64,000 bases of DNA, taken from the sequence record NZ_KX832927.1; one strand, written 5' to 3'. The notes under the pieces are model-generated. The model was not told the DNA's origin. It ran no database searches and was given only the letters and a program-made list of their open reading frames with translations. Of the stretch, positions 12,268-51,888 are shown piece after piece. How positions within the stretch are numbered: the first letter of the stretch is position 1; every line of letters starts with the position of its first letter. Source of the DNA: a plasmid. The position numbers and the translations under genes are program-made.

Positions 12268-12308
12268 CCCCTCAGGGACCGATGTCCCCCGTGGGGTTAA
12301 TGTTTGGG

Positions 12309-13158: not shown

Positions 13159-13171
13159 AGCTAGTGCTCTC

Positions 13172-13441
13172 CTACAGGTCACTTGGTACATACAGGTCAT
13201 CTTTGATGGCAGAAAAATCGACAGGAGACTGGTCCCCATAGGTTCGATTCACGCCACCAGCATCATCGACACTGACAAAAACCGTGCGGAGTAAACCGCT
13301 GGGCTTTGCAGGGTAAACGATGCTGACATGCTGACCTTTGTACTGTTCTGACAAAGTGCTTTGAAGCTCATCAACCGAACGGAATTTCCGGTCGCGGCCA
13401 AAGTCCTTAATCTTGATGTCGCCAGGGATTGGATTAGTCAT
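13172..13441 (-). CDS. small hypothetical protein (89 aa)
   Basis: ORF overlaps the downstream gene start by 8 bp. Confidence 0.4.
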   Translation of the reverse strand: MTNPIPGDIKIKDFGRDRKFRSVDELQSTLSEQYKGQHVSIVYPAKPSGLLRTVFVSVDDAGGVNRTYGDQSPVDFSAIKDDLYVPSDL

Positions 13442-14039
13442 CGTTACCCCCTGCCAGCAGTTTATCTACTGAATGGCCGAGTCCGTTACCAAACCATTTG
13501 TCCAGAGCGTCGATTTCCGGGAAGTCCGATTTCACCTGAGCAACAACACGTTCCATTTTGCTGAGAGCATCCTGGAACTCAAGGCCATTACCTGCGGCCA
13601 CCTCAAGTTTGCACTTGATGTAAGCGGAGTAGGTATCACAGGCCTTAACCAGTGATTGTTCATAGCCACCGGGAGCGAAGGCTATGGCGACTGCATCCTG
13701 GAGTTCTTCGGGAAGAGTCTGGATGAGTTTGTCCTCTGCGGCCTTTTCCAGTCGTTCAAACTCACGCTGCAAAACAGCGTTTGCTTTCTTGACCGGTGTT
13801 ACAACATCCGAACAGAGAACCTCGGCTGCATCATGCAACGAAGCATGAGCAAGCATGACTGCCAGATCCACCGACTTCCCTTGCTGAATGGCAATATTGC
13901 CAGCCAGGTAGGAAAGCAGGGTAACAACAGCGCTGTGTTCCAACACAGACTCCGGTTGAACAGAGTGCATCAGTGACCAGCGTTTGATCAGGCGTTGGCG
14001 CAAGGCCAGAGCTAGAAAGCCGAAATTTGAATTAGACAT
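13434..14039 (-). CDS. HD-domain phosphohydrolase (YfbR-like 5'-nucleotidase family)
   Basis: H...HD...H...D metal-binding pattern (HSAVV...LAHASLHDAAEV...D). Confidence 0.6.
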   Translation of the reverse strand: MSNSNFGFLALALRQRLIKRWSLMHSVQPESVLEHSAVVTLLSYLAGNIAIQQGKSVDLAVMLAHASLHDAAEVLCSDVVTPVKKANAVLQREFERLEKAAEDKLIQTLPEELQDAVAIAFAPGGYEQSLVKACDTYSAYIKCKLEVAAGNGLEFQDALSKMERVVAQVKSDFPEIDALDKWFGNGLGHSVDKLLAGGNDD

Positions 14040-37239: not shown

Positions 37240-37306
37240 TCAATCTACATGAGAAAGGGGCCTTTCGGAGTATATAGTGAATTTTGTGTACTTCTGTTGG
37301 TGAGTG

Positions 37307-37345
37307 AGTGAATGCCCCATAAGCAAAGGCTTTTGGGGCATTTTT
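37307..37345 (+). terminator. rho-independent terminator after the lipoprotein gene
   Basis: GCCCCATAAGCAAAGGCTTTTGGGGC hairpin followed by ATTTTTAG. Confidence 0.55.
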
Positions 37346-37433
37346 AGTTTTTACACGGTATGTAATTTGGTGTGTAAAAATAGGAGCACTTGCTCCAAGG
37401 GCTCTGCCCTCTCGCCGCAAGCGGCGATTCACC

Positions 37434-37457
37434 CGAGGTATTTCACGACCAGCGATG
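37434..37457. repeat. 24-bp direct repeat, left copy (CGAGGTATTTCACGACCAGCGATG), flanking the integron
   Basis: 23 of 24 identity with the copy at 44301-44324. Confidence 0.6.
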
Positions 37458-37595
37458 TGATCCAGTGAGAGCACAGATACAGATAACTTCCTCGGGGATG
37501 CTTAAAAGTGAGCAATGGTCGTACCACCATACTCATACTGTAGCTGGAGGATGCCATAATAAATTGGCCGCCCGTAGCTTTGGTCGCAAAGCGAA

Positions 37596-37690
37596 CGTTC
37601 AGATTTCGGAATAACGCTTAGGTAACCGGCGCCGGAGCGCCAGCGGAGGGAACCAAAAGCGGCACGCTTTTGGCGTCCGGTTGACCGCCT
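37596..37690 (-). repeat. attC site of the GNAT cassette (last cassette)
   Basis: ATAACGC...GTTAC inverted-repeat structure. Confidence 0.55.
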
Positions 37691-37692
37691 TG

Positions 37693-38157
37693 TTACATGG
37701 TGATTCGATAGTATCCGCCATACTCTCCATCCTTAGAACCACTGTGCGTGGCCTGCCAACCCAATTTTTGGGCCACTCTCTTGCTGGCCACATTATCGTC
37801 CGCGATGAAGACCTGAACGGTATCGAGGTCGAACTCTGTGGATAGCCTTTCAACCGCCAACTCGCAAGCCTTGGCAGCTATCCCGTTTCCCCAAAACTCC
37901 GACCTGATGAAATAGCCGAAGTCGAAAACGCCATCTATCTGCTTAATACCGCAGAACCCGATAAATTCATCTTTATCAGCCTCTGCAATAGCAAAGCGAG
38001 TTGGGTTAGTGAGAGCACTCTCGAACCAAGAATTCGCCTCATCTTCTGTCAGGGCGCGACCCGGCCCAAGAAATCGCATGACCTCAGGATCTCGAAGCAT
38101 CGACATAACAGCCGTCTTATCTTTCTGTTGAAGATCCCTCAGCTTCACTGGAATCAT
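37693..38157 (-). CDS. GNAT-family N-acetyltransferase cassette
   Basis: Acetyl-CoA-binding motif region (WGNGIAAKA). 154 aa. Confidence 0.7.
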   Translation of the reverse strand: MIPVKLRDLQQKDKTAVMSMLRDPEVMRFLGPGRALTEDEANSWFESALTNPTRFAIAEADKDEFIGFCGIKQIDGVFDFGYFIRSEFWGNGIAAKACELAVERLSTEFDLDTVQVFIADDNVASKRVAQKLGWQATHSGSKDGEYGGYYRITM

Positions 38158-38241
38158 AAGGCCGACCTCACCATGTAACGCGAAGCTAAGCGGCGGCCCG
38201 TCAGGGACGTCCGGTGGACGGCCGTCAGGCCGGGAACGTAC

Positions 38242-38682
38242 TTAAGCGATTTGTTGTACGTTCCAAGACTCCCGCAGCTGGCCAATGACACCCGCGACCG
38301 TTTCAAACACCACCTCGTGAGAGCAACGGTAACGGTCCCTGGCCCAATCCAAAACAATAGGGCCTCGAATTTGTGACGCATGGTGGGGAAATGCCTCCAA
38401 GTACTCTTCAGTAAGGGCGGCTCCCCTGGGAAAAATGTGAAAATGAAGTCGAGACTGCTCTTCCCCAAACTGAGCGCAGTAGATGCGCAAGGGATTCACT
38501 GCTTCCTTTACCAGCGAAGTGACATTGGCCAATAGAGGGCCAAGGCTCTCGACCGATTGCCTTGGTAGAGCATCTAGCGATTCGACTGAAGCCAACGGAG
38601 AGACGATCAAATAGCCGGGCACAGCACAGGAATAGCAGTGCTCGACTAAAAAATCTTCTGATCGTCCAATCTCGAAGTTCAT
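38242..38682 (-). CDS. HIT-like fold protein cassette with degenerate histidine triad
   Basis: CAVPGYLIVSP and HFHIFPR resemble HIT/GalT-branch motifs. Confidence 0.45.
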   Translation of the reverse strand: MNFEIGRSEDFLVEHCYSCAVPGYLIVSPLASVESLDALPRQSVESLGPLLANVTSLVKEAVNPLRIYCAQFGEEQSRLHFHIFPRGAALTEEYLEAFPHHASQIRGPIVLDWARDRYRCSHEVVFETVAGVIGQLRESWNVQQIA

Positions 38683-38689
38683 CAGTACC

Positions 38690-38785
38690 TACTCGTACAA
38701 CGCTTGCAGCATGCGCGCCTGCGGAATGGAGCCAAAGGCGCAATGTAGTAGGCGTCGCCGTGCCTGCATTGGTTAAAACCTACCA
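38690..38785 (-). repeat. attC site; close paralogue of the attCs at 39315-39397 and 39755-39838
   Basis: Shared core CAGCATGCGCG...GGAATGGAG...GCAATGTAGTAG.CGTCGCCGTG. Confidence 0.6.
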
Positions 38786-39292
38786 TCAGGAACCTCCGGG
38801 GTTAGCCAGCCGCACCGCAACGTTGCTGTGTTGCGATCCAGTTTCATTCTCATGCTGTGAGCCGAAAAGATTGACCCACTGCCCCTGAACCAACACCAAC
38901 TCCCCGTTGCCAACACTGCTCCCATTGCTCCCATTGCTCCCATTGCTTGTAGTGTAATTGCCAGCATAGTTGAACTGGAATTGGCCGGACGAGCCCATGA
39001 TTGGCTTGAGTTCATAACCTATGGACAACTCACTGGAAGAGGCAAAGCCTTTATCCTTGCTCGATACGCTAACCCTTAAAAGTCTCGATTCTTCCAGAAA
39101 GCTTGGCAATAAATCAGAGGGTAAGCTATCCGATTGTGTAGCCTGACACTCACAATACCGAACCTCCAACACCAGCGTTTTATTGGCGAGATAGTCTTCA
39201 GGAGCCGAGTTGTCGGCAAGAGCAATGCTAGGAATCAAGGATAGAAAGAGCAGATTAACCCGCAGAGTAATTTGTGTTGCGATCCGTTGCAT
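38786..39292 (-). CDS. secreted protein cassette with GSNGSNGSS tandem repeat
   Basis: Signal peptide. The 9-bp tandem repeat ATTGCTCCC x3 at about 38921-38950 encodes the GSN repeats. Confidence 0.45.
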   Translation of the reverse strand: MQRIATQITLRVNLLFLSLIPSIALADNSAPEDYLANKTLVLEVRYCECQATQSDSLPSDLLPSFLEESRLLRVSVSSKDKGFASSSELSIGYELKPIMGSSGQFQFNYAGNYTTSNGSNGSNGSSVGNGELVLVQGQWVNLFGSQHENETGSQHSNVAVRLANPGGS

Positions 39293-39314
39293 GTGACCTC
39301 CTGTATTTACGTTT

Positions 39315-39397
39315 TAACGCCAGCCAGCATGCGCGGCTACGGAATGAAGGCGAAGCCGCAATGTAGTAGACGTCGCCGTGACTGGCCTTGTTATGCA
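39315..39397 (-). repeat. attC site
   Basis: Near-identical to 39755-39838. Confidence 0.6.
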
Positions 39398-39398
39398 T

Positions 39399-39731
39399 TT
39401 ACCATTGGACCAAAACGTCTTGAACTTTCAGTGTCTCCGAGTCGAATCCAATCGCCCAAAACACTTTGATATCACTTTTGCTGTACTTCGCCTTCCACAA
39501 CGTCAACTTGGACTCATTTCTCGGTAGGCAATCTATAGACTCGATGCTTTCCAACGCACCCATTTCGTTCTCTATATCCCGACACATATCCAGATACATG
39601 TCTTCAGTGATCTTCCCATCGTCATTCGGGTCCTTAGGCAGCGCCGACATTTCTTGGAGTTCCCGATAGCTCCTTCCGTCATGTAGCTTGATTAGTCGCT
39701 CAGCCAGTTCAGTTTCTCGGTCAGTGATCAC
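39399..39731 (-). CDS. hypothetical cassette protein (about 110 aa; GTG start after AGGAGG)
   Basis: The track ORF extends into the attC. The RBS AAGGAGG with a GTG at 39731 gives a cassette-contained gene. Confidence 0.4.
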   Translation of the reverse strand: MITDRETELAERLIKLHDGRSYRELQEMSALPKDPNDDGKITEDMYLDMCRDIENEMGALESIESIDCLPRNESKLTLWKAKYSKSDIKVFWAIGFDSETLKVQDVLVQW

Positions 39732-39754
39732 GTAACTTGTCCTCCTTGATTGCA

Positions 39755-39838
39755 TAACGCCAGCCAGCATGCGCGGCTACGGAATGGAGGCGAAGCCGCA
39801 ATGTAGTAGACGTCGCCGTGACTGGCCTTGTTAAAACC
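39755..39838 (-). repeat. attC site
   Basis: CATAACGCC...GGCCTTGTTA inverted cores. Confidence 0.6.
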
Positions 39839-39845
39839 TCTTGGG

Positions 39846-40247
39846 TCACTTGGAATAATGCCCCTCTACTGTAATTTGTACCGGAGTGCAGCCAACACGT
39901 CCGGCACCATGGCAGCCATAGCAAGTTTCCCTTTCCCCAGTTTTCGGGTTGTCGTAATACCCGACACCGGCGCATACCTCGCAAGGGCAGCCATTTGCTG
40001 AGAGCTTTTTATACTTAAGCCATGTTTGCTCAAGCAATGTGCTTGGTTCTGCCTTTCCCGTAACCACATCCAACAAATGTTGGTGCTCGATATTGATGGG
40101 ATTGAGAACACCTTGCTCTAAAGCCCTAATCCAACACCCATTCAGCTCCAGCTCCATATTTTCCTGATGGCTAAATTGTCGCTCGAGCCATGCGGGTAAC
40201 AGAAAATCCATCTCTCGATATTTTTTATGTTGTTGTTCATCGTTCAT
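39846..40247 (-). CDS. Cys-rich (CxxC...CxxC zinc-ribbon-like) hypothetical cassette protein
   Basis: GCPCEVCAG...CYGCHGAG motifs. Confidence 0.45.
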   Translation of the reverse strand: MNDEQQHKKYREMDFLLPAWLERQFSHQENMELELNGCWIRALEQGVLNPINIEHQHLLDVVTGKAEPSTLLEQTWLKYKKLSANGCPCEVCAGVGYYDNPKTGERETCYGCHGAGRVGCTPVQITVEGHYSK

Positions 40248-40261
40248 GGTATCACCAGGGC

Positions 40262-40340
40262 ATACCCCGTTTTAACGCCTGGGCTCAGCGGCCGATTTGG
40301 AGGCGCACCGCGCCGGAAAACCGGTCCGCTGGAGCCCCTG
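40262..40340 (-). repeat. attC site of the DinB-like cassette
   Basis: TTAACGCC...CTGGTTATA cores. Confidence 0.5.
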
Positions 40341-40341
40341 G

Positions 40342-40884
40342 TTATACATTGTTCTGACTCGGGATCAGTGCTAGCAAATCCGTTACCCCAACGTCTTCGC
40401 CAGATTGCGAAAGTAGCGTAGTTACCTGCCCCCGATGATGAGTTTGATGATTGAAGAAATGATAGATCAAGGAGGAAAATCGTTTGGTGGCGGGCACACC
40501 CTTGGTATTCTGATAGCTGAGAATAAAATCTAAATCACTATCAGTGAGCCCTGAAATCCATTTGATGATTTTCTCATCTAGCCACTTTCGGTGGCTATAC
40601 AACTCATCAAGATCTTCGAAAATTATTTGGTTGAGGTTTTTGGGAGCCGCTAGCTCAGTGATTTCACGTAGTGGTTCAGCGCTTGCTGGTTGTGCAGCAA
40701 ACCTCTTTAGCCAAATCGTATCCCCAACAACGATATGGTTTAGCGTACCCAATATTGACCCGAAGAAGGCTCTTCGATCTTCTAAAAGAGCCGATTTGCT
40801 CAGGTTGCCTGCGGCGCCATATACCCTCTCATTCATCCACCGGTTGTATTCGGCCATCAGCTCAAAATGTTGTTTCAGGCTCAT
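40342..40884 (-). CDS. DinB/YfiT-family (DinB_2, metal-dependent) protein cassette
   Basis: His-rich triad HxxxD...H...H (FFNHQTHHRG). Confidence 0.6.
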   Translation of the reverse strand: MSLKQHFELMAEYNRWMNERVYGAAGNLSKSALLEDRRAFFGSILGTLNHIVVGDTIWLKRFAAQPASAEPLREITELAAPKNLNQIIFEDLDELYSHRKWLDEKIIKWISGLTDSDLDFILSYQNTKGVPATKRFSSLIYHFFNHQTHHRGQVTTLLSQSGEDVGVTDLLALIPSQNNV

Positions 40885-40904
40885 CTGACTGAGGTCCTTC
40901 TACT

Positions 40905-40995
40905 GTATAACGCCTCACATCACCGGGAGCGAAAAGCAAAGCGAGGGACGAGCGGTACTTTTTGCTCTCCGAGTGCATGTGATTGTTATGTAGTC
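40905..40995 (-). repeat. attC site of the Ere-like cassette
   Basis: TATAACGCC...GATTGTTAT cores. Confidence 0.55.
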
Positions 40996-41008
40996 CAATT
41001 TCCGATGC

Positions 41009-42232
41009 CTATAATTTCACTAATTTATCTTGGTTGGCGCTAGGAACGCAGAATATAGCGTCAAAGGCATCACTCACATTCGTCTCAACAGATGAGCTCT
41101 GCGATCTAACTCGGCTAGCGCCTTTAACGTCGTCCGACAATATTAAACATGAGCCCGCCACACCCCTAGCACTCATAATATGCTGTTCCACACTGTCTCT
41201 TTGGATTTTATCAGCGTCTGTGGGCTCCACCGAAAAGCCTAACGGACTGTCAGGCGAAGGAAACTGCATCTCCGGCACAGTACCCCCTAGATGCGTTGCT
41301 CCAATGGCACGGTAATCTTTCCTCCGATACGCAAGTTGCTGGCCCATAGGAACAGCCGTAAGTTCTCCAGAAAAGGAAACTGAAGTCTTCTGGATATGGT
41401 TGTTATGCGCAAGTAGAAGTATCTTCAAATTTGGATCTGCGTGAAGAAATCTCTCAACAGTGGTAGCTGTGAACATCTCACGAACGGAAGTGTCACCATC
41501 GAGTGAAGTGCCATCAAAGAGCATCTTCATGGTGCGCAATGTTTCGAGCGTATGTTCAATCGAACAGACACACTCCGACGCCCTTTGAAACAGCTCCTTT
41601 CCACCTCGCTGGACTAGAATTGGTTCCAATCCAGACAACCGCAACTTTAACCGACTAATCCGGGAGAAGGCTTGATCCTGTTTAGCGGTACCCAGTTCAC
41701 CCCATTGCGCGGATGAAATCACGGGGGAATCGCCACATATGGATTCCAAAGACTGGATTAACGCATCGACGTCCGGCTTCAAAATGGGATCCAGTAAATC
41801 AATAGCCGCGGACAATCTCTGTAAGTCGTCAAGTGGGTTCAGCGTATTGGGCAAATCAACGCCAACCACCATAATGCTTTTTCCAGTCTCTAAAAGATAA
41901 GATTTGAGCCAAGTCAGCACCGACCCATACAGAGCGAAGGTCAATGGGTTCGTGATTTCCTCTAGCTTATCCGTGCTCGCTGAAGATTTGAGCCATTCGG
42001 AGATCCGGTTACCCTGAACCGCCCCGCACTCCAGCCCAATTGCATTAAACTCGTGCATCTCTACAAAGTATCGGATGAAACTGGCTCTGGCCAAGGAAAA
42101 CTCAGAAACAAAGTGAGCCCCTTCGCCAATCCCTATCACTCTGGCATATTTCGCCATCGAAGATAGATCTTCAAGCTCACTGAAATCTACATTACAAGGC
42201 TGTAAGAGCGTTCTGATTGTTCTGTACGTCAT
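41009..42232 (-). CDS. erythromycin-esterase-family (Ere-like) hydrolase cassette, divergent
   Basis: VIGIGEGAHFVSEF (compare EreA/EreB LGEATHG) and LLAHNNH (AHNxH) motifs. 407 aa matches the family size. Confidence 0.65.
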   Translation of the reverse strand: MTYRTIRTLLQPCNVDFSELEDLSSMAKYARVIGIGEGAHFVSEFSLARASFIRYFVEMHEFNAIGLECGAVQGNRISEWLKSSASTDKLEEITNPLTFALYGSVLTWLKSYLLETGKSIMVVGVDLPNTLNPLDDLQRLSAAIDLLDPILKPDVDALIQSLESICGDSPVISSAQWGELGTAKQDQAFSRISRLKLRLSGLEPILVQRGGKELFQRASECVCSIEHTLETLRTMKMLFDGTSLDGDTSVREMFTATTVERFLHADPNLKILLLAHNNHIQKTSVSFSGELTAVPMGQQLAYRRKDYRAIGATHLGGTVPEMQFPSPDSPLGFSVEPTDADKIQRDSVEQHIMSARGVAGSCLILSDDVKGASRVRSQSSSVETNVSDAFDAIFCVPSANQDKLVKL

Positions 42233-42287
42233 ATGTTCAACTCAATATCTTCATTATGATGGATCTGCTGTATCTAGTTCCTAGGTC

Positions 42288-42410
42288 AGGATACATAACG
42301 CCCTGTTAAGGTGTGAGCAACGCAATACCGAAGCCTCCACACACCACCTTAATCACTTAAATCAACGCATAGTGAAAATGCCACGCGTTGCGAATCACTC
42401 TTGAACAGTT
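42288..42410 (-). repeat. attC site of the dfrA cassette (about 120 bp)
   Basis: ACATAACGCC...GTTTGTTAGCCC cores. Confidence 0.55.
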
Positions 42411-42412
42411 TG

Positions 42413-42886
42413 TTAGCCCTTTGTCCAAATTTGGTACGTGTAATCAATATTTGAACTGAAACTTTGCTCAAATGTTTGCTTGAAACTCTGTGGAACTGAA
42501 GGGAAAAACACGTCGCCAGAGATGTGCTTATGAATCACTGAAAGATGGATAACATCTGCTTGTTCGATTAATGCTTTGTAAATTTCACCACCACCAGAAA
42601 CAAAGACATGTGTTGTCGTGTTGTCTAAGTAAGCTAATGCCGATTCAACGCTTGTGAAATAAACAACATCAGGATCATTCGAGGCCATTTCAGTACGAGT
42701 AACCACAGCATATTTCCTATTCGGAAGTTTACCCATTGAGTCGAAAGTTTTACGACCGACTAAAAGCCAATGATTGTAAGTCATAGCTTTGAACAGGAGC
42801 TGCTCACCATATACATGCCAAGGTATATCCAATCCAGAGCCAATTACTCCATTCTCGGAAACAGCTGCCATAATGGATATTTTCAT
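42413..42886 (-). CDS. dfrA: trimethoprim-resistant dihydrofolate reductase, DfrA family (first cassette)
   Basis: 157 aa. [23 protein letters not shown]...[22 protein letters not shown]...VSGGGEIY...DYTYQIW.KG matches type A Dfr proteins; about 60-65% to dfrA1/dfrA6 as recalled by eye. Confidence 0.85.
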
Positions 42887-43247
42887 TTTTCCTCCTGAGG
42901 GCTAACAGCTTATTAGTTTGCTTTCTTATTAAACCGCAACACCATCACCCAGTCCAATACTGCTTCACAACCTGAATAACCTCGATTTTTCAGATCATTA
43001 CCCCTCCATCTCAGGGGGCTTTTGAGCTTTTGGTTCTGTGAAAAGTGTGCACGCGGGATATTTATGCACGTTTTTGCACGTTAAATCCAGTGGGTCGAAT
43101 TTTTCCCATGCTGAAACAGATACCTACAGAGATGCATTGTGAAAAGTGAGCAGGGCCGTGCAAATTAAGCCGCAAGAATTTTGGTGTTTTTGGGTGTTTT
43201 TTATTATAACTGTACGTACATACAGCATTCAGCCACGGAGGGCGAGC
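42887..43247. promoter_or_regulatory. attI recombination site and Pc/Pint promoter region between the first cassette and intI
   Basis: Cassette boundary core GTTAGCC (reverse complement at 42900-42906). Divergent arrangement typical of integrons. Confidence 0.5.
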
Positions 43248-44216
43248 GTGTCGAAATCACCGTTTCTACAATCGGTCCGCACAGAAATTAGGACAAAGCA
43301 GTACAGCTACCGAACCGAGAAGTCCTATCTTTACTGGGTTCGTCAGTTCATCCTTTTCAATGACAAGAAGCACCCAAAAGTCATGGGTAATCACGAAATT
43401 GAGCGTTTCCTGAATCACCTCGCCGTCAATCGGGGAGTCAGTCCGGGCACTCAAAATCAGGCGCTATGCGCGATTATTTTTGTCTACAAGCATGTGCTGA
43501 AGCGGGAGATTGAAAACCTACAGTACAAGATGACGAAAACGCCTCGACGCATGCCAACCGTTCTGAGTCCCGATGAAGTTGCTTCTATTCTTCAAAACAT
43601 GGATGCAGAGTATTGGCTCATCACTGCGCTTCTTTATGGATGCGGTTTGAGAATCAACGAAGCTCTTTCGCTTCGCGTGAAAGACATCGACCTAAAAAGC
43701 CGCAGTTTGCTCGTATTCAACGGTAAGGGACGAAAAGATCGATACACACTGATTCCAGGCAATCTAAGAGAAAACATGGAGCGACAATTCGCCCATGTCA
43801 GGGCTGTACATGAGTCCGATCTGGCCGATGGATTCGGGCTTACGTCAGTGCCGGCCTCACTTCACAAGAAGTATGGACCGGCCATGAAGGACTTTGGTTG
43901 GCAGTACCTGTTCCCATCCGTAACAAGATGCGTTCATCCCATCGCTGGTTATGTGTGCCGCCACCATCTTCATCATTCATCGTACTCGCGGCGATTGAGG
44001 CAGGCCGTTCTGGCCACGGGAATCACCAAGCGTGTGACGGCTCATACCTTTCGGCATGCCTTTGCGACAGAGTTATTGAGATCGGGGAGCGATATCAGGA
44101 CGGTCCAGGAAATTCTTGGGCATAGCGACATTCGAACGACAGAAATCTACACGCATGTCATTGGCGATCGACGTGCTGGAACCGTCAGCCCTTTTGATCG
44201 TTTGCCAAGTTCTTGA
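43248..44216 (+). CDS. intI: integron integrase (IntI-type tyrosine recombinase)
   Basis: IntI-specific extra segment plus box I ALLYGCGLRINEALSLRVKDID and box II HTFRHAFATELLRSGSDIRTVQEILGHSDIRTTEIYTHV. GTG start after GGAGG gives 322 aa. Confidence 0.85.
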   Translation: MSKSPFLQSVRTEIRTKQYSYRTEKSYLYWVRQFILFNDKKHPKVMGNHEIERFLNHLAVNRGVSPGTQNQALCAIIFVYKHVLKREIENLQYKMTKTPRRMPTVLSPDEVASILQNMDAEYWLITALLYGCGLRINEALSLRVKDIDLKSRSLLVFNGKGRKDRYTLIPGNLRENMERQFAHVRAVHESDLADGFGLTSVPASLHKKYGPAMKDFGWQYLFPSVTRCVHPIAGYVCRHHLHHSSYSRRLRQAVLATGITKRVTAHTFRHAFATELLRSGSDIRTVQEILGHSDIRTTEIYTHVIGDRRAGTVSPFDRLPSS

Positions 44217-44300
44217 TGGGGCGTTGCTTACCCGTTTAAGGGGCGTAAAGCCTGGAATTGGGAGTGCGGCGAATGTCCGCTTTTGTTTATGAGCTGATTT

Positions 44301-44324
44301 CGAGGTATTTGACGACCAGCGATG
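44301..44324. repeat. 24-bp direct repeat, right copy (CGAGGTATTTGACGACCAGCGATG)
   Basis: Matches 37434-37457 with 1 mismatch. Confidence 0.6.
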
Positions 44325-44395
44325 ATCGTTTAAGATGAAGTTGCGGTACAGGGAGAGGTCCCGATGGCCGCGACCGGCGATGAGGGGGCGTGCCA

Positions 44396-46570
44396 TTAAT
44401 GGCTTACCCCCGAATCCCTCTCTTGCAGCAGCTCCCTCAAGAAACTCGCCCGCCTGGTGGCATTGCTTACCGATTTTACGATGGACGCAAAATCACTAGC
44501 CTGCCCGACAATATGTATCTCTGCCTCGGCACGGGTAATCGCCGTGTAAAGCCACGCACGGTCTGAGATACGCCCCGTCTGGACTGCCACGATGATTCTC
44601 GGGAACTGGCTCCCTTGAGCCTTGTGGAGCGTGATTCCGTAGCCAAGCTCCATGCAATCGAAGACTTCATCCGTAATTGAAATGGCTTCGCCGGTATCCA
44701 GCGTCACGACACCAAATGTTTCCTGGCCGTCCTTGGTGTCGCGCTCTGTTGAGGATAATACGCCAAGAGACCCATTCTGAATGCCGATGTTGTACTTGTT
44801 CCTGGTGAAGAGGATCGGGTCGCCCACTCTGATATCGAGGAAGAATTCATCGCCATGCAGTCTAAACTGCAAGCACTCCCCATCGGGATTGATCAGCTTT
44901 TGGCACTCACGGTTCACCTCGCCAACTAGAGCCTTGGTGGCTCCGATGATCTGAGTGTTATAGGGTGACTCCGCATACAAGGATTTGCACTTATCGACCA
45001 TCTTCTGCGGAGGCGTCTCGTGGAACGTGATTGCGCCAACCGATAACGCAGGAGGCACCTCACCCCGATTGATGGTGGCCGAGTATTCCGGGATGCCCGT
45101 TGAGTCTTCCTGGCGTTTGACGATGTTCAACTCAACCGTAGCGATTGCACCGGACTCAACGATGTCTGAGAGGACTTTGCCGCAGCCGATGGCTGGTAGC
45201 TGGTTCGGATCGCCGGTCAGGATGATGCGTACCGAAGGATCGAGGTGCGTAACAATCCGATACATGGTCGGCAGGTCGGTCATACTGGCTTCGTCGATGA
45301 CCAGGAGATGCTGCGCCTGATCCAGTGACGGCGAGATCGGCTCTTCCCGCAACAGGCGAGCAATTGTCATGGTGAAGAATCCGATGCTCTCGTGCAGTCG
45401 CATAGCAGCTCGCCCCGACAGAGCGACGGCATGAACCTGATAGCCTAGTGCGGCATAGGCTTTGAGCACGGCACGAAGGACCGTGGTTTTACCCGTACCG
45501 GCACCACCCGTAATGCAGGACACCGCATTGGTAAGGCTCAACTCGACCGCTTGGACCTGCTGCTCGGTCAGGTCGTAGGGCAACTCCTGAACGGCCTCGG
45601 TGAGCGCCTTGAAGACGGATTCATCTTCATTCTTGATGGCGGCCAGGGCCTTGAGCCGCTTCGCAACGACCGACTCCATCATGATTTGGGCGGTAGGGTG
45701 GTAGGTGCCGGTCTCTGGCCTGAGAATGAACTGGCCGTTGCGATAACCGCTGGCGAACGCCTCTGCGACCAGAGCTTTATCGCCCAGAAGCTTGGTCACC
45801 TCGGGCCTGAGCGCCGGATGGGAGGCGTAGGTGTGCCCCTTTTCTACCTCTTTTCGTATCGCGCTTTCTAACGCAGCTGCGAGCCGCACCGGTGCCGATT
45901 TATCCATGCCCATTTTTTCAGCAATCGCATCGATATCGGGAAAAGGCATTCCGAATCCGAGCAATGCGTAGGGATTGGTCTTGAGTACCTCAACGGTTCG
46001 ATTATCGTGGTACTTTAGAATGCGTTGCTGGATGCTCAGCGGCACTCCCAGAGAAGCCAGCCAATTCGCATGCGCAAGGTTTTTGTACTTGGCGTAGCCG
46101 TTGTATAGCGCGGTTACTGAAACCTCGCTAAGAACCTCCCTGAGACGGCCTCTGTGCTCGGAGGTATTGGATTGGAGCATGGGGTGCAGGTCACTGCCAA
46201 AAACGTTCCAGAGGGCGCGTGCTTTGGCCTCACCGATACCGGTGAACTCCTTTTCATTGGCAATGAAACGGATCAGCGCCTCGCCCGTTTCCGGCAGCGT
46301 GCACTCCATCTCAGCTGGGGCGTCATACAAATGTTGCTGAAGCTTATAATCGCCTGCCTGAACGGTCTCCAGCGTCCTTACGCCACGCACTCGCCATTGC
46401 TGACCAACGGACGGCTTGATAGGCAGGGACTGGTTTTCGCATCGGATGCTGACGATGTATTTGCCCGAGTTGATCTTGTAACTGTCAGTCTTGAGGGGAA
46501 CGCCCGTGAAGATCGTGTATTTATAGCCGTTATGCTGGCAGCTGGTGACACGGAAATACTCTTCATGCAT
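44396..46570 (-). CDS. RecD2-like (AAA_30 / UvrD_C_2) DNA helicase with N-terminal HhH region
   Basis: Walker A GGAGTGKTT. HhH FTGIGEAKARAL. Motif QAVELSLT...LVIDEASM. Confidence 0.7.
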   Translation of the reverse strand: MHEEYFRVTSCQHNGYKYTIFTGVPLKTDSYKINSGKYIVSIRCENQSLPIKPSVGQQWRVRGVRTLETVQAGDYKLQQHLYDAPAEMECTLPETGEALIRFIANEKEFTGIGEAKARALWNVFGSDLHPMLQSNTSEHRGRLREVLSEVSVTALYNGYAKYKNLAHANWLASLGVPLSIQQRILKYHDNRTVEVLKTNPYALLGFGMPFPDIDAIAEKMGMDKSAPVRLAAALESAIRKEVEKGHTYASHPALRPEVTKLLGDKALVAEAFASGYRNGQFILRPETGTYHPTAQIMMESVVAKRLKALAAIKNEDESVFKALTEAVQELPYDLTEQQVQAVELSLTNAVSCITGGAGTGKTTVLRAVLKAYAALGYQVHAVALSGRAAMRLHESIGFFTMTIARLLREEPISPSLDQAQHLLVIDEASMTDLPTMYRIVTHLDPSVRIILTGDPNQLPAIGCGKVLSDIVESGAIATVELNIVKRQEDSTGIPEYSATINRGEVPPALSVGAITFHETPPQKMVDKCKSLYAESPYNTQIIGATKALVGEVNRECQKLINPDGECLQFRLHGDEFFLDIRVGDPILFTRNKYNIGIQNGSLGVLSSTERDTKDGQETFGVVTLDTGEAISITDEVFDCMELGYGITLHKAQGSQFPRIIVAVQTGRISDRAWLYTAITRAEAEIHIVGQASDFASIVKSVSNATRRASFLRELLQERDSGVSH

Positions 46571-47006
46571 CGGGCGCTACTCCGAACTCTGTGAGGACTT
46601 CGGACAGTTCACCGTAACGTTTTAGCTTGGCTTCGAGGGTTGCCACCCGGGCCTTTAGTTCAATGTTTTCCTGCTCCAGCACTGAGAGCCTTCTCGATTC
46701 CATGGCTCTTTTGTTAACGCTGGGATCATAGCGTTTGGGTTCTGATCGCTGGGCCTTGGCGGTTTCGGTCAGTTCTGGCAGAACACCCCGATAACGCAGG
46801 TTCTGCTCCAGATTCTCCAATGCCGTTTTGATGGCCGGATTCTGGCGCAACGCGCTCTTTCCGATGCCTATGGCTTTGGCCACTTCGCCACGGTTTAACT
46901 GGCCCCGATGGAGGATCTGCTTAAAATCGTCATCCGTTTGGGTGGCCACCCAGCTCTGGAAGGCACTCAGGTTCTGACGTGCTCTTTCCTGACCATTACT
47001 CATCAA
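46563..47006 (-). CDS. HTH DNA-binding protein with coiled-coil C-terminus
   Basis: LNRGEVAKAIGIGKSALRQN helix-turn-helix. Heptad-like leucines. Confidence 0.45.
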   Translation of the reverse strand: MMSNGQERARQNLSAFQSWVATQTDDDFKQILHRGQLNRGEVAKAIGIGKSALRQNPAIKTALENLEQNLRYRGVLPELTETAKAQRSEPKRYDPSVNKRAMESRRLSVLEQENIELKARVATLEAKLKRYGELSEVLTEFGVAPDA

Positions 47007-47664
47007 TTTCCCCCAGGATCTTCTTGAGCCCGGTCAGGAAGCCACGAGGCAGGATTTCCACACCATACTCATCCTTCACCTGACCCAATTCGTTCGCCTG
47101 GAACCCGAGCTTTTCGAGCCACTCATCGGTGCAGACGGTTTGCAGGGCTTTAATCTCGTTGTCAGAGCAGACTCCCTTCAATGAGGGCAGCAGCTCCACA
47201 CTGGCGTCTGACTGGGGTTCACTGTAAACCGTAGGGCGCTTGTCGATGACGATCTGGGTTTGGTTCTTGAGCATGTTGGCTTCGCTCCTGTAGCGATCCC
47301 GCTCACGGATGATTTGCCCAAAAAGGGCTCGCACAGCTGTATCATCAATCCGCTCAAGCAACTGATGGTCCTGAGTTGGTCTCTTGGCAGGCCCTACCGG
47401 TGGCTTCTTGGTGGTGGTCTTCGCCTTAGCGGCCCACGCTTCAATCAGGTCCCGGTAATGCTTGTTCGCGGTGGCACGAATCGACTGATAGCCAACGCCG
47501 TCATTTTCCTCTGAGACACGCCCTATGGTGGTAATGGAGAAGTCCCGGGCACCGGATTCGTAGTAGTCCTTCAGGGTCTGGTTGAGCGTATCCAGGGACG
47601 ACTGTGTTTTAGCGGTTTTACCGTCCTTGAGGGACTCCAGAACCGCATTGGTATCGATGTTCAT
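46996..47664 (-). CDS. hypothetical protein (222 aa)
   Basis: Overlapping stop/start with both neighbours. Confidence 0.45.
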   Translation of the reverse strand: MNIDTNAVLESLKDGKTAKTQSSLDTLNQTLKDYYESGARDFSITTIGRVSEENDGVGYQSIRATANKHYRDLIEAWAAKAKTTTKKPPVGPAKRPTQDHQLLERIDDTAVRALFGQIIRERDRYRSEANMLKNQTQIVIDKRPTVYSEPQSDASVELLPSLKGVCSDNEIKALQTVCTDEWLEKLGFQANELGQVKDEYGVEILPRGFLTGLKKILGEIDE

Positions 47665-50282
47665 TCTTCCACCTCCAGGGCGGGAATCCGCGCCACGGAT
47701 TCAGTAGGCAAGGTGATTGGGGCTATCTTCTTCACGGCGTCAAACCCGGATTTCAGCAGCCGATCGTCTTTCAGGAATTCCTGCGCCTCAATGTAATTGG
47801 ACGCGATCCGGTAGCCCTCAAGCCGATCTTCGGGGGCGGCGATTTTGGCCATCTTGCGCATGAGCGCGTTACCCGCAATCAACTGGGTTTGTTCGTCCAT
47901 TTCAAGGAAAACGGGCTTGTACCCGGAACGGGCCATCATGCGGCTCAAGGCGTTGGTACGCTTGGCTATCGCGGGCGTCTTGCGCAGATCATCATGCAGA
48001 TCGGGGTGGAACTCAGCGTCCTCGCACAGCAGTGCCAGGTGCAGTAACTCCGAGTCAGTTTCGACGAACTTCATACTATATTTGAGGTCTTCATCAGAGC
48101 CGACCGCGATCAGCTTTTGCCCGTCGTCGTCCTCTTCACGCCCATTCTCGATCTGGATCACCCGATTGATCAGGTTGAAAATTGCGATGCAATCCTTGGC
48201 GTACTCATCCGCCTCCACCCTCTGCTTCTCGTAGCGCCGTTCTATCGCCTGAAGTTCGTTGTGCTTGAGAAACACTGCACCGGTTTCCTCAGCGATGAAC
48301 AGCTCATCCTTTAGTGCTTCTAGCTGACCCTCTAGGTGAACAGACAGCTCGGCCGCCTGGTGCGCCTTGTAGCTCACCTGGTTGAACGCAGAATTGAGAG
48401 CCGGAAGATAGGTGGCATCGGTAATGTGCCAGCGACAGCGGGGACAGTTTTCCGGCCCGAGGGGGACCGGGCCATAAACTCTTGAATGTGCGCTTTCTGA
48501 ACCCCTAACTATCGGGCCACCGTTCCAGCACCCGCCTACGGTGGACAGCTCATCTGAGCGCACGGTGTTGCCCCCAACCAGGCACAAGCCCGTGGCTCGT
48601 TCCTCCCAGCCGATGGGATTCCGGTTGGCAAGCACGCTCTCGACGGAATTGTGCTGGTCGTTGTGAAAGGCAGCCCGGAGCGGGATCTGTCTCATTTCCG
48701 CGTCCACCAGGAAGTTTCGGAGCGAGCCTTCACCTCGTTCGGACAGAACTGCGTGTGCCTCCTTCATTTTGTCGGCCATCACGGAGGGCGTGATCTTGTT
48801 GTAATAGATCGTCATCAGAAGCCGTGTGTGGCCGGCCAGAAGCTTCGCGATCACCGGCAAGGGGAGGTCGGTGTCCATGGTGTAGCAGGTGATCAAGGAG
48901 ACCCGAAGGCTGTGAAGCGGGTAGTCCGTTGCCACCTTAGCGGCTTCCGTACCTTCAAAGTCCTCGCCGTAGTCTTTCACAAACCGAAGGCGATCCCCGT
49001 TGGCCATCGTTTGGCCCGACTGGAAGACATCCTCTTCCAGTTTGGACAACAGGCGATACCACGAACTAGCCAATGAGGTGTAGGTAATTGGAAAAGCAGA
49101 ATTACGCTCCCTGAATAAAAAGGCAAACTCGCCCATTTGTTTCAATTGTTGCTTGGATTTAGCGACGCCAATATGGCTACGCTTAAGCTCTGTGCCACTG
49201 ACCAGTCGGTTAATCGGGTTGTATTTTTCCTGCCAACTGCGGAGCTTTTCCAGCCAATACAGCAGCTCTTCGTGCTGCCAAGGGATGGTGTATCCCCGCT
49301 GAAGTTCATCCTTGTTTTGATCGGCGGTTTTGTTGGTGGACACGTAGAGGCCGGTCGAGTACCCCTCGGTCATGGAGTCATATATGCGGCGGAAGACGCC
49401 TTTCTCATAAGGTCGCTTGGGCGTTCCATACTTGAAGGGGTGCTTGGTGTTTTCCACCCATTGCCCACCTTCATAGCGCCAGGTATCGGCTTCGCCGGAG
49501 TCCAGAAACCTCACCTGAAAAGAGCGCAGGGGTAGGTGCAGCTTGGTAAACAGGAACATCGCCATGACCGGCGACCAGATTTCGTGGACCTCAACTCTTT
49601 CTCCCTTCCTGGGCACAATCCGAGTCCGGAAAACGCAATCCGGATCATCAGGGTCGATGACCTCGGGCGGCACTTCCACCCATGCCCCATTGCCAGACTG
49701 AAGGTGATCGATGGCCCATTGCCAGTCCCGGAAATGGTGGCCTACCCACGGCGTTTTATTGCCGGGGTCGTCGGTTGGATAGGGGCAGAGGATGTGCCTC
49801 AGTTGCTGGATGTAGCGATAGGGCAAGGGGCTGTGGACGGTTTCGGTGTTTGATGTGTTATTCGTGATTTTCTCGAACGGATTCGGGAATAGGGGCCGCC
49901 CAACGCCGTTATCGTCCTCGGCGCTCAAATGGTGCTTGAGGATGTAATTGCATAAATCGACCGTGGACGAAATGTGTTTAGAGTTTTTAGTAATCGATCC
50001 ACTGCTAACCAGAAAGGCCTCAAACTCTTCCGTGGACACCTTGTGACCACCCGGATGGCCCTTGAACATCGTGGCCACGTCAACGGCGTACGGGGCTTTA
50101 GCGTTCAGATAGTTAAAGAAGTGTCTTAAGCATTTTAATCGCAGATCAATGCCTACGTTTTGCTCCGCAAGCCATTCGGCGGCGTACTGCTGCCATTGCA
50201 GCCAGTTGTGCCCCAGTTCCTTAGTCACCCACCCCAGCGTCAGATCCGTGGTGTAGCCTTTACTCGTCCTTCTTTTTGTCAT
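47661..50282 (-). CDS. large tyrosine-recombinase-like protein (873 aa) with extended middle and C-terminal regions
   Basis: Integrase-like N-terminal core-binding region. Catalytic-type R...HxxR...Y pattern (LRVSLI...AGHTRLLMTIYY). CxxC pair (CPRCRWH). Confidence 0.55.
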   Translation of the reverse strand: MTKRRTSKGYTTDLTLGWVTKELGHNWLQWQQYAAEWLAEQNVGIDLRLKCLRHFFNYLNAKAPYAVDVATMFKGHPGGHKVSTEEFEAFLVSSGSITKNSKHISSTVDLCNYILKHHLSAEDDNGVGRPLFPNPFEKITNNTSNTETVHSPLPYRYIQQLRHILCPYPTDDPGNKTPWVGHHFRDWQWAIDHLQSGNGAWVEVPPEVIDPDDPDCVFRTRIVPRKGERVEVHEIWSPVMAMFLFTKLHLPLRSFQVRFLDSGEADTWRYEGGQWVENTKHPFKYGTPKRPYEKGVFRRIYDSMTEGYSTGLYVSTNKTADQNKDELQRGYTIPWQHEELLYWLEKLRSWQEKYNPINRLVSGTELKRSHIGVAKSKQQLKQMGEFAFLFRERNSAFPITYTSLASSWYRLLSKLEEDVFQSGQTMANGDRLRFVKDYGEDFEGTEAAKVATDYPLHSLRVSLITCYTMDTDLPLPVIAKLLAGHTRLLMTIYYNKITPSVMADKMKEAHAVLSERGEGSLRNFLVDAEMRQIPLRAAFHNDQHNSVESVLANRNPIGWEERATGLCLVGGNTVRSDELSTVGGCWNGGPIVRGSESAHSRVYGPVPLGPENCPRCRWHITDATYLPALNSAFNQVSYKAHQAAELSVHLEGQLEALKDELFIAEETGAVFLKHNELQAIERRYEKQRVEADEYAKDCIAIFNLINRVIQIENGREEDDDGQKLIAVGSDEDLKYSMKFVETDSELLHLALLCEDAEFHPDLHDDLRKTPAIAKRTNALSRMMARSGYKPVFLEMDEQTQLIAGNALMRKMAKIAAPEDRLEGYRIASNYIEAQEFLKDDRLLKSGFDAVKKIAPITLPTESVARIPALEVEE

Positions 50283-51751
50283 GATTTACCTTTGCCCAAT
50301 CGTGGATTCTTGCCCGTAAAGTGGCCGTTTGGATCAATGTCTTCAAAACCGTGTTCTGCAAGCGTCTTCCAATCGAAAGATGCGGGGGGCTTTTCCTTAT
50401 CCGATCCCAACTGAAGTTGTTGTGTTGCCTGGGACAGCGCTTCCGAGACTTTCGCGCTGGAGGGCATGGTGTAAGGAACCTGAGACTCCAGGCTTGCGTG
50501 ATGCAGGCACTTTTTGCGAATAAGCGGATCGACTCCGGCATCCGTCAATCGACGGCCATAGTTGTGGCGATGGCCGTGTGGATCTAACCCTACGGTCTTG
50601 TCGGGTTCGAGACCAATTCGTCTTAACCCAGCCGCATAATTTTGGTTGAAGGAATTGTAGGTATAGGGATTGCCCAGATAGCGAGAGTCGAAGCTAACAA
50701 ACGCATAGGGATGATGGCACTCCACCGATGCACGGAAAACCAAATACTGTCGCCACAGCGACATGAATACTTGGGCAAACTCTTGCGGGAAGAAATGCGC
50801 CTCCAGGTAGCCATCCTTGTCATCTAGGGTTTTGGATTTCCAGCCGAGATGTGGGGTTTTTTGCATCTCCTGGCGCGGGATGCGTGCGTATTTTTCTTGA
50901 AGGTACGCCTTGCGGGTTTTTATCCCTTTTCGGGACTTCCAGCCTTCAGGTGCCTTACCTTCTATCTCGTTGTAGATCCTCACGATTGCCCGATCTGGAT
51001 CGGAGGGGTCTTCAAAGACATCGGTGACCCAGAGTAACAGTGCTTCGCTCACCCTCAATCCGGTCGCGTGCATCAGGAGCACGATAAGCTTGTCCCGCAG
51101 CGCAACTCGCGGGTCTTTGGCTCCTCCCAGGCCCTTCATATAGAAGTCTTCAAACTTTCCCGTAGGGAAGGCGATGGCATCGTCATTGGTTTTTGCCAGA
51201 GGTGTTCTGCCCTTGATGCTGCGGGCTCTTTTTACCGTGGTACTAACCGAGGTGTCTTTAATGTGCCCGAGGAAATCATTCTGGTTACGCCTAAACCAAG
51301 CGGCGTACTGAATGCGTTCCTCATGTCGAGTGGCTGTGCGCAAGGTATTGAGAGGCTTGCCCAGACCTTTGTCCGAGAGCCAATTGGTGAAATTCGTCAG
51401 ATTGCTGATGTGTCGATGTATCGTGCCATTACTGGCCGGTATCCAATACAGGCCAGAGGGGTCCAATCCATCTTCACCGATGGTCCCGCTGTAGAGCCGT
51501 CGGACGAAGCCCGCGAACAACGCTTCGGGTTCATCGAACATGCCTTCGTTGGCATCCATGAACTCGATGAGGAGTCTAATCGACTGAATATGGTTGGTGA
51601 TTGTTGAAAATGAGATGCCATTTAGGTGAAGGCTAAGCACATAATCTGTGACCGACCCCAAAACCCCTTGGTCGGTCAGAATGACCGGGATCTCTGTGGT
51701 TACTCCACTGTTATCCTGAACTACCTTGGCTGTAACCTTCGTTGCAAACAT
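50279..51751 (-). CDS. tyrosine-recombinase-like protein (490 aa)
   Basis: Box I GLRVSEALLLW. Box II HGHRHNYGRRL. C-terminal LHHASLESQVPY. 4-bp overlap with the downstream 873 aa gene. Confidence 0.6.
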   Translation of the reverse strand: MFATKVTAKVVQDNSGVTTEIPVILTDQGVLGSVTDYVLSLHLNGISFSTITNHIQSIRLLIEFMDANEGMFDEPEALFAGFVRRLYSGTIGEDGLDPSGLYWIPASNGTIHRHISNLTNFTNWLSDKGLGKPLNTLRTATRHEERIQYAAWFRRNQNDFLGHIKDTSVSTTVKRARSIKGRTPLAKTNDDAIAFPTGKFEDFYMKGLGGAKDPRVALRDKLIVLLMHATGLRVSEALLLWVTDVFEDPSDPDRAIVRIYNEIEGKAPEGWKSRKGIKTRKAYLQEKYARIPRQEMQKTPHLGWKSKTLDDKDGYLEAHFFPQEFAQVFMSLWRQYLVFRASVECHHPYAFVSFDSRYLGNPYTYNSFNQNYAAGLRRIGLEPDKTVGLDPHGHRHNYGRRLTDAGVDPLIRKKCLHHASLESQVPYTMPSSAKVSEALSQATQQLQLGSDKEKPPASFDWKTLAEHGFEDIDPNGHFTGKNPRLGKGKS

Positions 51752-51811
51752 CCTTGAATCCTACACAAATTACACATTATTTACTATATATATAGTGCAG
51801 TCTTCAGGAAA

Positions 51812-51850
51812 AAGAAACCCCCAATTAAGGGGGTTTTTATCAAATTTACA
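51812..51850 (-). terminator. rho-independent terminator downstream of traN
   Basis: On the minus strand: AAACCCCCTTAATTGGGGGTTT hairpin followed by CTTTTTCC. Confidence 0.6.
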
Positions 51851-51888
51851 CAGTTCTATGTACTATAGAGAACGAAAGGCCCCTTTTT

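Follow-up and report, generated by a model that had tools for sequence, protein, structure and literature searches.

The stretch of DNA analysed here (the window) comprises 64,000 nucleotides of a plasmid (sequence record NZ_KX832927.1), and the element under study is an integron that lies on a larger mobile island in the transfer region of an IncC plasmid backbone. The integrase gene intI (43248-44216, plus strand) is faced by eight consecutive open reading frames (ORFs) on the minus strand, whose cassettes span 37615-42905, and every one of these ORFs is followed by an imperfect palindrome ending in GCGTTR. An IntI-type recombinase, an attI site adjacent to and upstream of the divergently oriented intI, and attC-bounded cassettes, all parts of an integron platform, were confirmed. 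The reading that we hold with good confidence is that of a complete, probably active integron, derived from Marinobacter and carried as cargo of a gamma-mobile-trio (GMT) island in an IncC plasmid.

The intI gene was read from the GTG start used in RefSeq, and it encodes a protein of 322 amino acid residues, listed as WP_008169685.1 in related records. IntI scored 401.7 bits against the NCBIfam model TIGR02249 ("integron integrase"; cut-off 265), remained far under the cut-offs of the XerC/D models, and reached 285.7 bits against the IntI1-type equivalog NF011946, for which the cut-off is 435. When compared with the VchIntIA crystal structure (PDB 2A3V), IntI was aligned from end to end at 40% identity with two one-residue gaps, and the integron-specific extra segment, which is missing from Xer proteins, was aligned without a gap, as an earlier note on this DNA, made from its letters, had expected. 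The GLR, GKGxK, HTxRH, LGH and IYTHV motifs were all kept, and the intI gene of the window is intact. The comparison with clinical and reference classes took in IntI1, IntI2, IntI3 and VchIntIA, and gave protein identities of 45.1% to IntI1, 48.8% to IntI2 and 43.6% to IntI3, with that to VchIntIA as above; the integron was assigned to none of classes 1, 2 and 3. The same note had denied that this is a class 1 or a Vibrio cholerae repeat (VCR) array, and had argued from the length of the attC sites. The denial of class 1 was upheld because of the IntI identity; the argument from attC length was invalid, given that integron class is defined by IntI. Moreover, a palindrome arm and the end of the island, rather than qacEdelta1-sul1, were found distal to the last attC.

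The attI crossover box GTTAGCC is located at 42900-42906 (minus strand), which places recombination between G 42906 and T 42905. This box is the reverse complement of the R'' box of the dfrA46 attC (GGCTAAC), and in platforms with different first cassettes the homology to the window ends at 42902/42903. The intergenic region between attI and intI (42907-43247) is 99.4-100% identical to the Marinobacter chromosomal platform and presumably holds the IntI sites, the integrase promoter (Pint) and the cassette promoter (Pc). Upstream of intI, no convincing LexA box was recognised by eye.

In a linear array, the cassette start TTRRRY is left by the preceding recombination, and it pairs with the R'' box of its own cassette on circularisation. 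The cassette-start 7-mer (GTTRRRY) was found to be the exact reverse complement of the cassette's own R'' box in eight out of eight cassettes, the first one (with the attI box) included, which bore out the earlier description of eight attC-bounded cassettes on the minus strand. According to our estimate, which allows for an AAC triplet or two in the permissible range, the chance of such a match is ~0.004 per cassette and ~1e-19 for all eight. The attC sites of cassettes 1 to 8 (attC1 to attC8) measured 126, 87, 78, 85, 85, 84, 87 and 90 nt. Each attC was rebuilt as it would stand in the circular cassette, with the cassette-start TTRRRY of its own, and the bottom strand was folded with DNA parameters. 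As shown by the minimum-energy folds, an R-box stem of 7-8 bp and a spacer loop of 1-4 nt were formed by all eight sites. An L stem with single-nucleotide bulges confined to the 3' arm was observed in attC1 to attC7, and the fold of attC8 was less canonical. The R''-L''/L'-R' structure with extrahelical bases, on which the earlier note had staked its attC calls, was therefore recovered for attC1 to attC7 and, in its R stem and loop, for attC8 as well. When the sites were folded as found in the array, a canonical hairpin was obtained for five of the eight; this lower count was discarded as an artefact, because the neighbour's R' half had been used in place of the cassette's own TTRRRY. An Rfam search of the whole window at the gathering thresholds gave zero matches and no attC family. 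The attC4 and attC5 sites are 99% identical over 79 nt, and attC6 is related to them, a likeness that would be expected of cassettes drawn from one chromosomal array.

The first two cassettes are of the resistance type. Cassette 1 (42299-42905, minus strand; ORF 42413-42886; attC 42293-42418) carries dfrA46, and its product scored 289 bits against the NCBIfam DfrA1-like family (cut-off 250). The exact protein already bears the name DfrA46 in NCBI records, and the suggestion that the gene might be an unnamed allele was therefore wrong; the AMRFinder result recorded in PLSDB for pPROV224-1, whose protein is identical to that of the window, is 98.73% identity to the DfrA46 reference. Identities of the window protein to other named Dfr proteins were 94.9% (DfrA31), 89.8% (DfrA6) and 60.5% (DfrA1). 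An identity of 60-65% to DfrA1/DfrA6-type proteins had been predicted; it holds for DfrA1 and fails for DfrA6. The identity of ~62% to a known resistance protein belongs to cassette 2, not to dfrA. A cassette at a Colwellia chukchiensis locus (L044), upstream of the intI there, shares 96% DNA identity with that of dfrA46.

Cassette 2 (40911-42298, minus strand; ORF 41009-42232; attC 40905-40991) encodes an EreA-like esterase of 407 amino acid residues, which has the Ere-family fold (Pfam PF05139) and is 61.5-61.9% identical to EreA/EreA2 over the full length. Its score against the NCBIfam EreA model was 580.1 bits, under the cut-off of 750. Judged from these comparisons, the predicted product is an Ere-family enzyme but not EreA proper, and it is unnamed; it is left so by the resistance callers because it is ~62% identical to EreA/EreA2 and under the EreA cut-off. 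The protein is 98.3% identical to a Halomonas protein and 97.1% to one of Marinobacter fuscus. Copies at 94-98% were seen in records of Halomonas, Marinobacter fuscus, Klebsiella, Raoultella and Salmonella. Trimethoprim and macrolide phenotypes would be predicted for these two cassettes, if they are expressed from the putative Pc.

The other six cassettes are also on the minus strand. Cassette 3 (40276-40910; ORF 40342-40884; attC 40270-40347) encodes a DinB-family protein (Pfam DinB, E = 4e-26), cassette 4 (39758-40275; ORF 39846-40247; attC 39752-39836) a DUF413 protein (Pfam DUF413), and cassette 8 (37615-38178; ORF 37693-38157; attC 37609-37698) a GNAT acetyltransferase (Pfam Acetyltransf_3, E = 8e-28). 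The 146-residue ORF of cassette 7 (38179-38700; ORF 38242-38682; attC 38173-38259) is weakly HIT-like, with 18.8 bits against Pfam HIT, under the cut-off of 21.5. The ORFs of cassette 5 (39318-39757; ORF 39399-39755; attC 39312-39396) and of cassette 6 (38701-39317; ORF 38786-39292, 168 residues; attC 38695-38778) gave no family match in the NCBIfam and Pfam searches. The small ORF of cassette 5 likely starts at the ATG within GTTATG of the R' box, which gives ~118 residues. The longest ORF at this place (39399-39770, minus strand) begins within attC4, and no gene is called there in pPROV224-1 by the Prokaryotic Genome Annotation Pipeline (PGAP).

On both sides of the integron, the window was found to be 100% identical to the backbone of IncC plasmids; this identity stops at 37262 on the left and resumes at 51873 on the right. 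In many IncC plasmids the two flanks are adjacent, and the insert is therefore 14.6 kb long, with the integron as its left half only. The empty site reads AAAGGGGCC-GAAA-GGCCCCTTTTTTT in p1540-2 (the core is also given as AAAGGGGCC-GAAA-GGCCCCTTT), and across the site an empty IncC plasmid has catgagAAAGGGGCC-GAAA-GGCCCCTTTTTTTatcc, the bidirectional terminator that separates orf286 from traN. The insert (37263-51872) thus lies in the loop of the traN/orf286 terminator hairpin and splits it into a left arm, AAAGGGGCC (37254-37262, plus strand), and a right arm, GGCCCC with a T-run (51878-51890, plus strand). On the left, a 5-nt junction spacer, TTTCG (37263-37267, plus strand), adjoins the conserved island end GAGTATATAG, which begins at 37268. 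At the opposite side three minus-strand genes were identified, namely gmtX (46996-47664; NF040692, 228.4 bits against a cut-off of 40), gmtZ (47661-50282; NF047926, 989.4 bits against 600) and gmtY, a tyrosine recombinase gene (50279-51751; NF040693, 529.3 bits against 340). The trio stands at one border of the insert, and the end of gmtY is 121 bp from the right border.

It was reported by Mahata et al. (bioRxiv 10.1101/2023.03.28.534373) that the GmtY/GmtZ/GmtX trio marks one border of GMT islands, that these islands enter sites with an inverted repeat and a spacer and form a circle without flanking repeats, and that transfer is replicative and requires all three Gmt proteins (demonstrated for VPaI-6); plasmids can ferry the islands. 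With the trio, its position at the border and the inverted-repeat site all present, the 14.6-kb insert is a GMT island. In the datasets of the same work it is GMT no. 51 of Providencia rettgeri RB151 (14,487/14,607 bp, 13 genes), with AAAGGGGCctaagaGCCCCTTT as the RB151 insertion site and three copies of GmtY WP_071547865.1; the word "integron" is absent from the main text. The chromosome of RB151 has been described as containing an integrated plasmid-like region "flanked by 14.6-kb direct repeats" (PMC5554438), which were left uncharacterised, and these repeats are most likely copies of this GMT island. The earlier note had placed the integron directly in the transfer backbone of an SXT/IncC-family element. 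The IncC transfer region was correct, but SXT was not, both flanks being 100% identical to IncC plasmids with a precise empty site in others; and the integron is internal cargo of the GMT island instead of a direct insertion.

At 99.8-100% identity, the island was found in Providencia plasmids and chromosomes at no fewer than five different sites, namely the traN/orf286 terminator, which it occupies in either orientation, a site downstream of traG, and two Providencia chromosomal sites. Hairpin-type flanks were observed at five or more further insertion sites; where both flanks were readable, GC-rich hairpin arms were followed by a T-run, and the cases with a left flank only end in a similar GC-rich arm. 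Three copies of the island are present in the RB151 genome, which together with the many sites lends indirect support to replicative transfer through a circle. On the array side, the two RB151 copies inspected are neighboured by orf286 or by a chromosomal major facilitator superfamily (MFS) gene, and the copy at the MFS gene has gmtY beside traN. The RB151 copy that shares the left flank of the window has the spacer TAAGA, not TTTCG. Since, in addition, both flanks of the window were found together in none of the RB151 copies seen, the idea that the window is part of the RB151 chromosome was dismissed. Over 37254-44600 (7.3 kb), four nucleotides differ between the window and pPROV224-1, and all of them lie in the 5-nt spacer (TTTCG versus TAAGA). 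Among otherwise identical copies (L001, L019 and L096-L105 compared), the spacer is TAAGA at five sites, and TAACG, TCTCG and TCTAA occur elsewhere. TAAGA is also the spacer of the RB151 chromosomal insertion site. We infer from this variation that the 5-nt spacer is the crossover region of GMT recombination; it may travel with the island or may mark where the crossover takes place.

Outside Providencia, Marinobacter persicus (L018) has the same island architecture, ends and integron platform at 89% identity, and Salinivibrio costicola ATCC 33508 (L019, 8823-18625) has the same island and platform at 93%. The Salinivibrio island contains a single cassette of 130 amino acid residues and no recognised resistance gene. 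Its gmtY appears to be split into two ORFs. Between cspE and crcB of an E. coli chromosome, a related GMT core was found that is 85-86% identical and lacks the integron. This island (strain S1-CAM-01-A, L003) was considered as an integron-free "empty" ancestor and set aside as not decisive, for one palindrome arm is kept and an IS1380-family element is present there.

Precise gain and loss of cassettes between near-identical islands suggests that the integron is active. In one copy (L101, GCA_030509835.1), which occupies the same IncC site as the island of the window, an extra qnrVC cassette of ~1 kb (6319-7326) lies exactly at the attI crossover, and its QnrVC product scored 501.9 bits against an NCBIfam cut-off of 460. 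In another (L100, GCA_054895845.1) the array consists of qnrVC and ere only, and the R' of the ere attC is fused precisely to the sequence after attC8; with cassettes 3-8 missing, this junction is the product expected from an attC x attC excision (attC2 x attC8). The L101 island also contains a group II intron (11980-13936), on the opposite strand, at the attC7 R'' box (window 38254-38260). Group IIC introns that target attC sites insert in such a fashion, and the site has therefore been recognised as an attC independently. Furthermore, blaVMB-1, dfrA1 and blaCARB are found on the same platform in pVb1796.

An alternative would be that the integron is a passive relic, with an array assembled in a marine host, now hitch-hiking with an IntI that is inactive in enterobacterial hosts. 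In favour of this, no fewer than four Providencia plasmids and several chromosomal copies have the array with all eight cassettes in identical form. Several further points weigh against the reading of an active, Marinobacter-derived cargo. In two Providencia chromosomal copies (L096, L104) intI is called as two ORFs, so that some copies would be inactive, unless the split is an error of assembly. A sigma-70 consensus scan of the region between attI and intI gave no strong promoter and did not find Pc, and a relaxed scan of it gave weak candidates, including a perfect TATAAT (43208-43203, minus strand) with a poor -35, so that neither Pc nor Pint was recognised in these scans. The cassette differences between copies could in principle come from homologous exchange between arrays and not from IntI. 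With regard to the history of the island, the E. coli copy may have arisen by deletion and need not be an ancestor that lacked the integron, and palindrome halves and a 24-nt repeat (described below) both lie at the edges of the integron unit. Against a relic stand the islands of 99.8-100% identity, which differ exactly at the recombination points (qnrVC at attI G|TT and the attC2 x attC8 deletion), and the intact intI of the window with all of its catalytic motifs. A passive relic is therefore considered unlikely, and IntI is presumably still an active enzyme.

The source of the platform was sought among the sequences related to it. The segment 42903-44289 (1,387 bp), which takes in attI, intI and the next 73 bp, shares 99.4-100% DNA identity with Marinobacter-type loci, namely those of Marinobacter manganoxydans MnI7-9, Marinobacter sp. 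SS8-8 and a set of environmental contigs. The IntI protein has 100% identity in M. manganoxydans and M. persicus and 87-95% in other Marinobacter species, and the next named relatives are at ~67%. In the environmental contigs, intI is followed by genes for a sigma-54 regulator, a pyrroloquinoline quinone (PQQ)-dehydrogenase and an aldehyde dehydrogenase, and a toxin-antitoxin-rich array precedes it; such conserved neighbours with such an array are, to judge by gene order, the signature of a sedentary chromosomal integron. The window has no such chromosomal neighbours; the homology stops 73 bp past intI, where island DNA follows. The cassettes point in the same direction as the platform: attC8 is 95.5% identical to an attC of Marinobacter-type chromosomal arrays, attC4-6 are 90-94% identical to attCs of Marinobacter salexigens, the ere attC (cassette 2) is 90% identical to one attC in Marinobacter sp. 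SS8-8, and cassette 6 matches a cassette from the array of a Marinobacter metagenome-assembled genome (L022) over 700 bp at 79% DNA identity.

The ends of the integron unit were located where this homology stops. For most Marinobacter-type chromosomal copies and for pVb1796 it ends at 44289, for M. manganoxydans at 44288, and for three loci at 44294-44295. The unit is bounded distally by the palindrome arm GTCGCAAAGCGAACGTTCAG (37582-37602, plus strand), which is repeated in Marinobacter-type chromosomal contigs, and on the intI side by the other arm, GCGGCGAATGTCCGCTTTTGTTTA (44265-44289, plus strand). The 36 bp at 37582-37617, in which the distal arm is joined to the last attC, are common to pVb1796 (L002) and SS8-8 (L020, 100%). 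The two ends are thus the two arms of a palindrome, GAATGTYCGCTTTTGTTTA … GTCGCAAAGCGRACATT, which is present intact several times in Marinobacter-type contigs (L006-L011 and L013-L015), one copy being just downstream of intI. Excision or recombination of the unit therefore took place inside copies of this repeat, which suggests that the 6.7-kb integron unit (37582-44289) was captured by recombination at Marinobacter palindromic repeats. Around the unit, a 24-nt direct repeat was found, with the left copy CGAGGTATTTCACGACCAGCGATG at 37434-37457 (plus strand) and the right copy, 23/24 identical to it, at 44301-44324 (plus strand). The pair brackets the segment in all integron-bearing islands examined with both ends on the contig, including L001 and the Salinivibrio island, and the integron-free E. 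coli island has the left copy only. The limits originally drawn for the integron, 37434 and 44324, coincide with this repeat; they are not the limits of the integron, whose last attC ends at 37609 and whose intI ends at 44216.

An origin in the reverse direction, in which the platform arose on a mobile element (a GMT island or a plasmid) and reached Marinobacter chromosomes secondarily, was also weighed. The M. persicus platform lies inside a GMT island, a Marinobacter plasmid carries the platform with qnrVC1, and platform ends made of repeat halves suggest a discrete mobile unit, all of which such an origin would explain. It is disfavoured by the environmental contigs inspected, which share their right-hand chromosomal neighbours and long toxin-antitoxin-rich arrays and in which the flanking palindrome recurs several times elsewhere, and by the spread of the 87-95% IntI relatives over Marinobacter species; we regard it as improbable, slightly more so than a passive relic. 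The view of the earlier note, an independent integron inserted directly in an SXT/IncC transfer backbone and akin to the intI9/dfrA1 integron of SXT, fits the position between tra-region genes of the IncC backbone and the dfrA gene in the first cassette, but it is very improbable, given that the backbone homology breaks at 37262/51873 and not at the integron ends, that the insert carries gmtYZX and recurs in chromosomes without IncC or SXT context, and that IntI is 100% identical to a Marinobacter chromosomal IntI, with the Dfr far from DfrA1.

Based on the favoured reading of a Marinobacter-derived integron carried by a GMT island, the following course of events is proposed. IntI would recombine the folded bottom strands of attC sites with attI, so that promoterless cassettes would enter at G|TTAGCC (42906/42905), and recombination of one attC with another would release cassettes. 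A sedentary Marinobacter chromosomal integron would be the source of the attI-intI platform and of some, at least, of the cassettes or attC types, and the integron unit would have become cargo within the GMT island. By analogy with other GMT islands, this island would insert by site-specific recombination that needs GmtY, GmtZ and GmtX, through a circular intermediate and in a replicative manner; the circular junction would consist of CTATAGAGAAC, the 5-nt spacer and GAGTATATAG. The island would target inverted repeats that enclose a spacer, in this case the GC-rich traN/orf286 terminator hairpin of the IncC plasmid, whose conjugation machinery would then move the whole package between hosts.

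Two further genes of the island lie between the integron and gmtX. A RecD2-like SF1B helicase of 724 amino acid residues (44396-46570, minus strand; Pfam AAA_30, HHH_RecD2 and UvrD_C_2) scored 366 bits against TIGR01448, under the cut-off of 500. It lies between the integron and the GMT core, is absent in the E. coli relative of the island, and possibly has a part in replicative transfer or defence. The gene next to it (46563-47006, minus strand) encodes a VPA1267-family protein (NF040697, 193.9 bits; cut-off 90). Positions 1-1223 of the window had no contiguous match in the IncC plasmids listed, and the best-matching plasmid has IS26 in the region beside rhs; the start of the window is probably the edge of a resistance island.

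Few integron classes are known to have left environmental chromosomes for clinical plasmids, and their source and capture are mostly obscure. In the present case both the source (Marinobacter, ~99.4-100% in DNA) and the vehicle (a GMT island that enters a terminator hairpin of a broad-host-range IncC plasmid) can be named, and intermediates exist in the one-cassette, non-resistance island of Salinivibrio and in the M. persicus copy. The path by which a chromosomal integron would pass to a mobile island, then to a conjugative plasmid, and recruit resistance genes is therefore directly testable. The array itself is of value for an EreA-like esterase that current callers leave unnamed and for six uncharacterised cassettes. 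Public records of the sequences date back to 2017 or earlier, dfrA46 has been named, and the island has been catalogued in the GMT datasets, although not as the carrier of an integron. In the literature, no paper was found on this integron, on where it came from or on its link with GMT, subscription journals being outside the coverage, so that a prior description is possible. We tentatively propose, at somewhat less than an even chance, that the capture of a whole Marinobacter integron by a hairpin-targeting GMT island is a previously undescribed route to clinical mobility for an integron outside classes 1, 2 and 3, and that a new mobile integron class is seen here early in its emergence, having gained clinical cassettes (dfrA46, qnrVC, blaVMB-1 and the unnamed EreA-like one) and kept marine ones.

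In comparison with known systems, the integron of the window is like the class 1, 2 and 3 integrons in its divergent intI, its attI and its promoterless attC cassettes, dfrA and ere-type ones included, and the mechanism is presumed to be the same. It differs from them in the IntI identities given above, in the lack of Tn402 or Tn7 modules and of a 3'-conserved segment after the last attC, and in its GMT vehicle. The integron of the SXT/R391 integrative and conjugative elements (IntI9, formerly class 4; accession AAK95987.1 as cited in PMC9229058) is likewise outside class 1, has dfrA as its first cassette, and rides on a conjugative element at the interface of marine and clinical Gammaproteobacteria; the two differ in the host element, which is IncC in the window, and in the Dfr protein, the comparison being one of element and Dfr. 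GMT islands such as VPaI-6 of Vibrio parahaemolyticus share the border trio, the insertion at an inverted repeat with a spacer, and copies on both plasmids and chromosomes. The published emphasis for their cargo has been on anti-phage defence and type VI secretion system effectors, whereas a whole cassette-capturing platform is the cargo here.

The closest systems are those with the same platform. The IncC plasmid pVb1796 of Vibrio alginolyticus has the identical IntI, a platform at 99.5% and the same unit ends (37582/44289). It differs in its cassettes, in its plasmid site and in having no gmtYZX alongside. There (L002, 9430-14456) the unit abuts genes for TetR, two large hypothetical proteins and a tyrosine recombinase, and this module may be a different integrative element with the same integron as cargo. 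The chromosomal integron of Marinobacter (M. manganoxydans, M. flavimaris and relatives) matches the window in platform and IntI and contains the relatives of attC8, attC4-6 and cassette 6, whereas the platform of the window is detached from the chromosomal neighbours, carries dfrA46 and the ere-like gene, and is located on a mobile island within an IncC plasmid. As far as mechanism goes, the integron is an ordinary one, with the same platform as pVb1796 and the Marinobacter chromosomal integrons.

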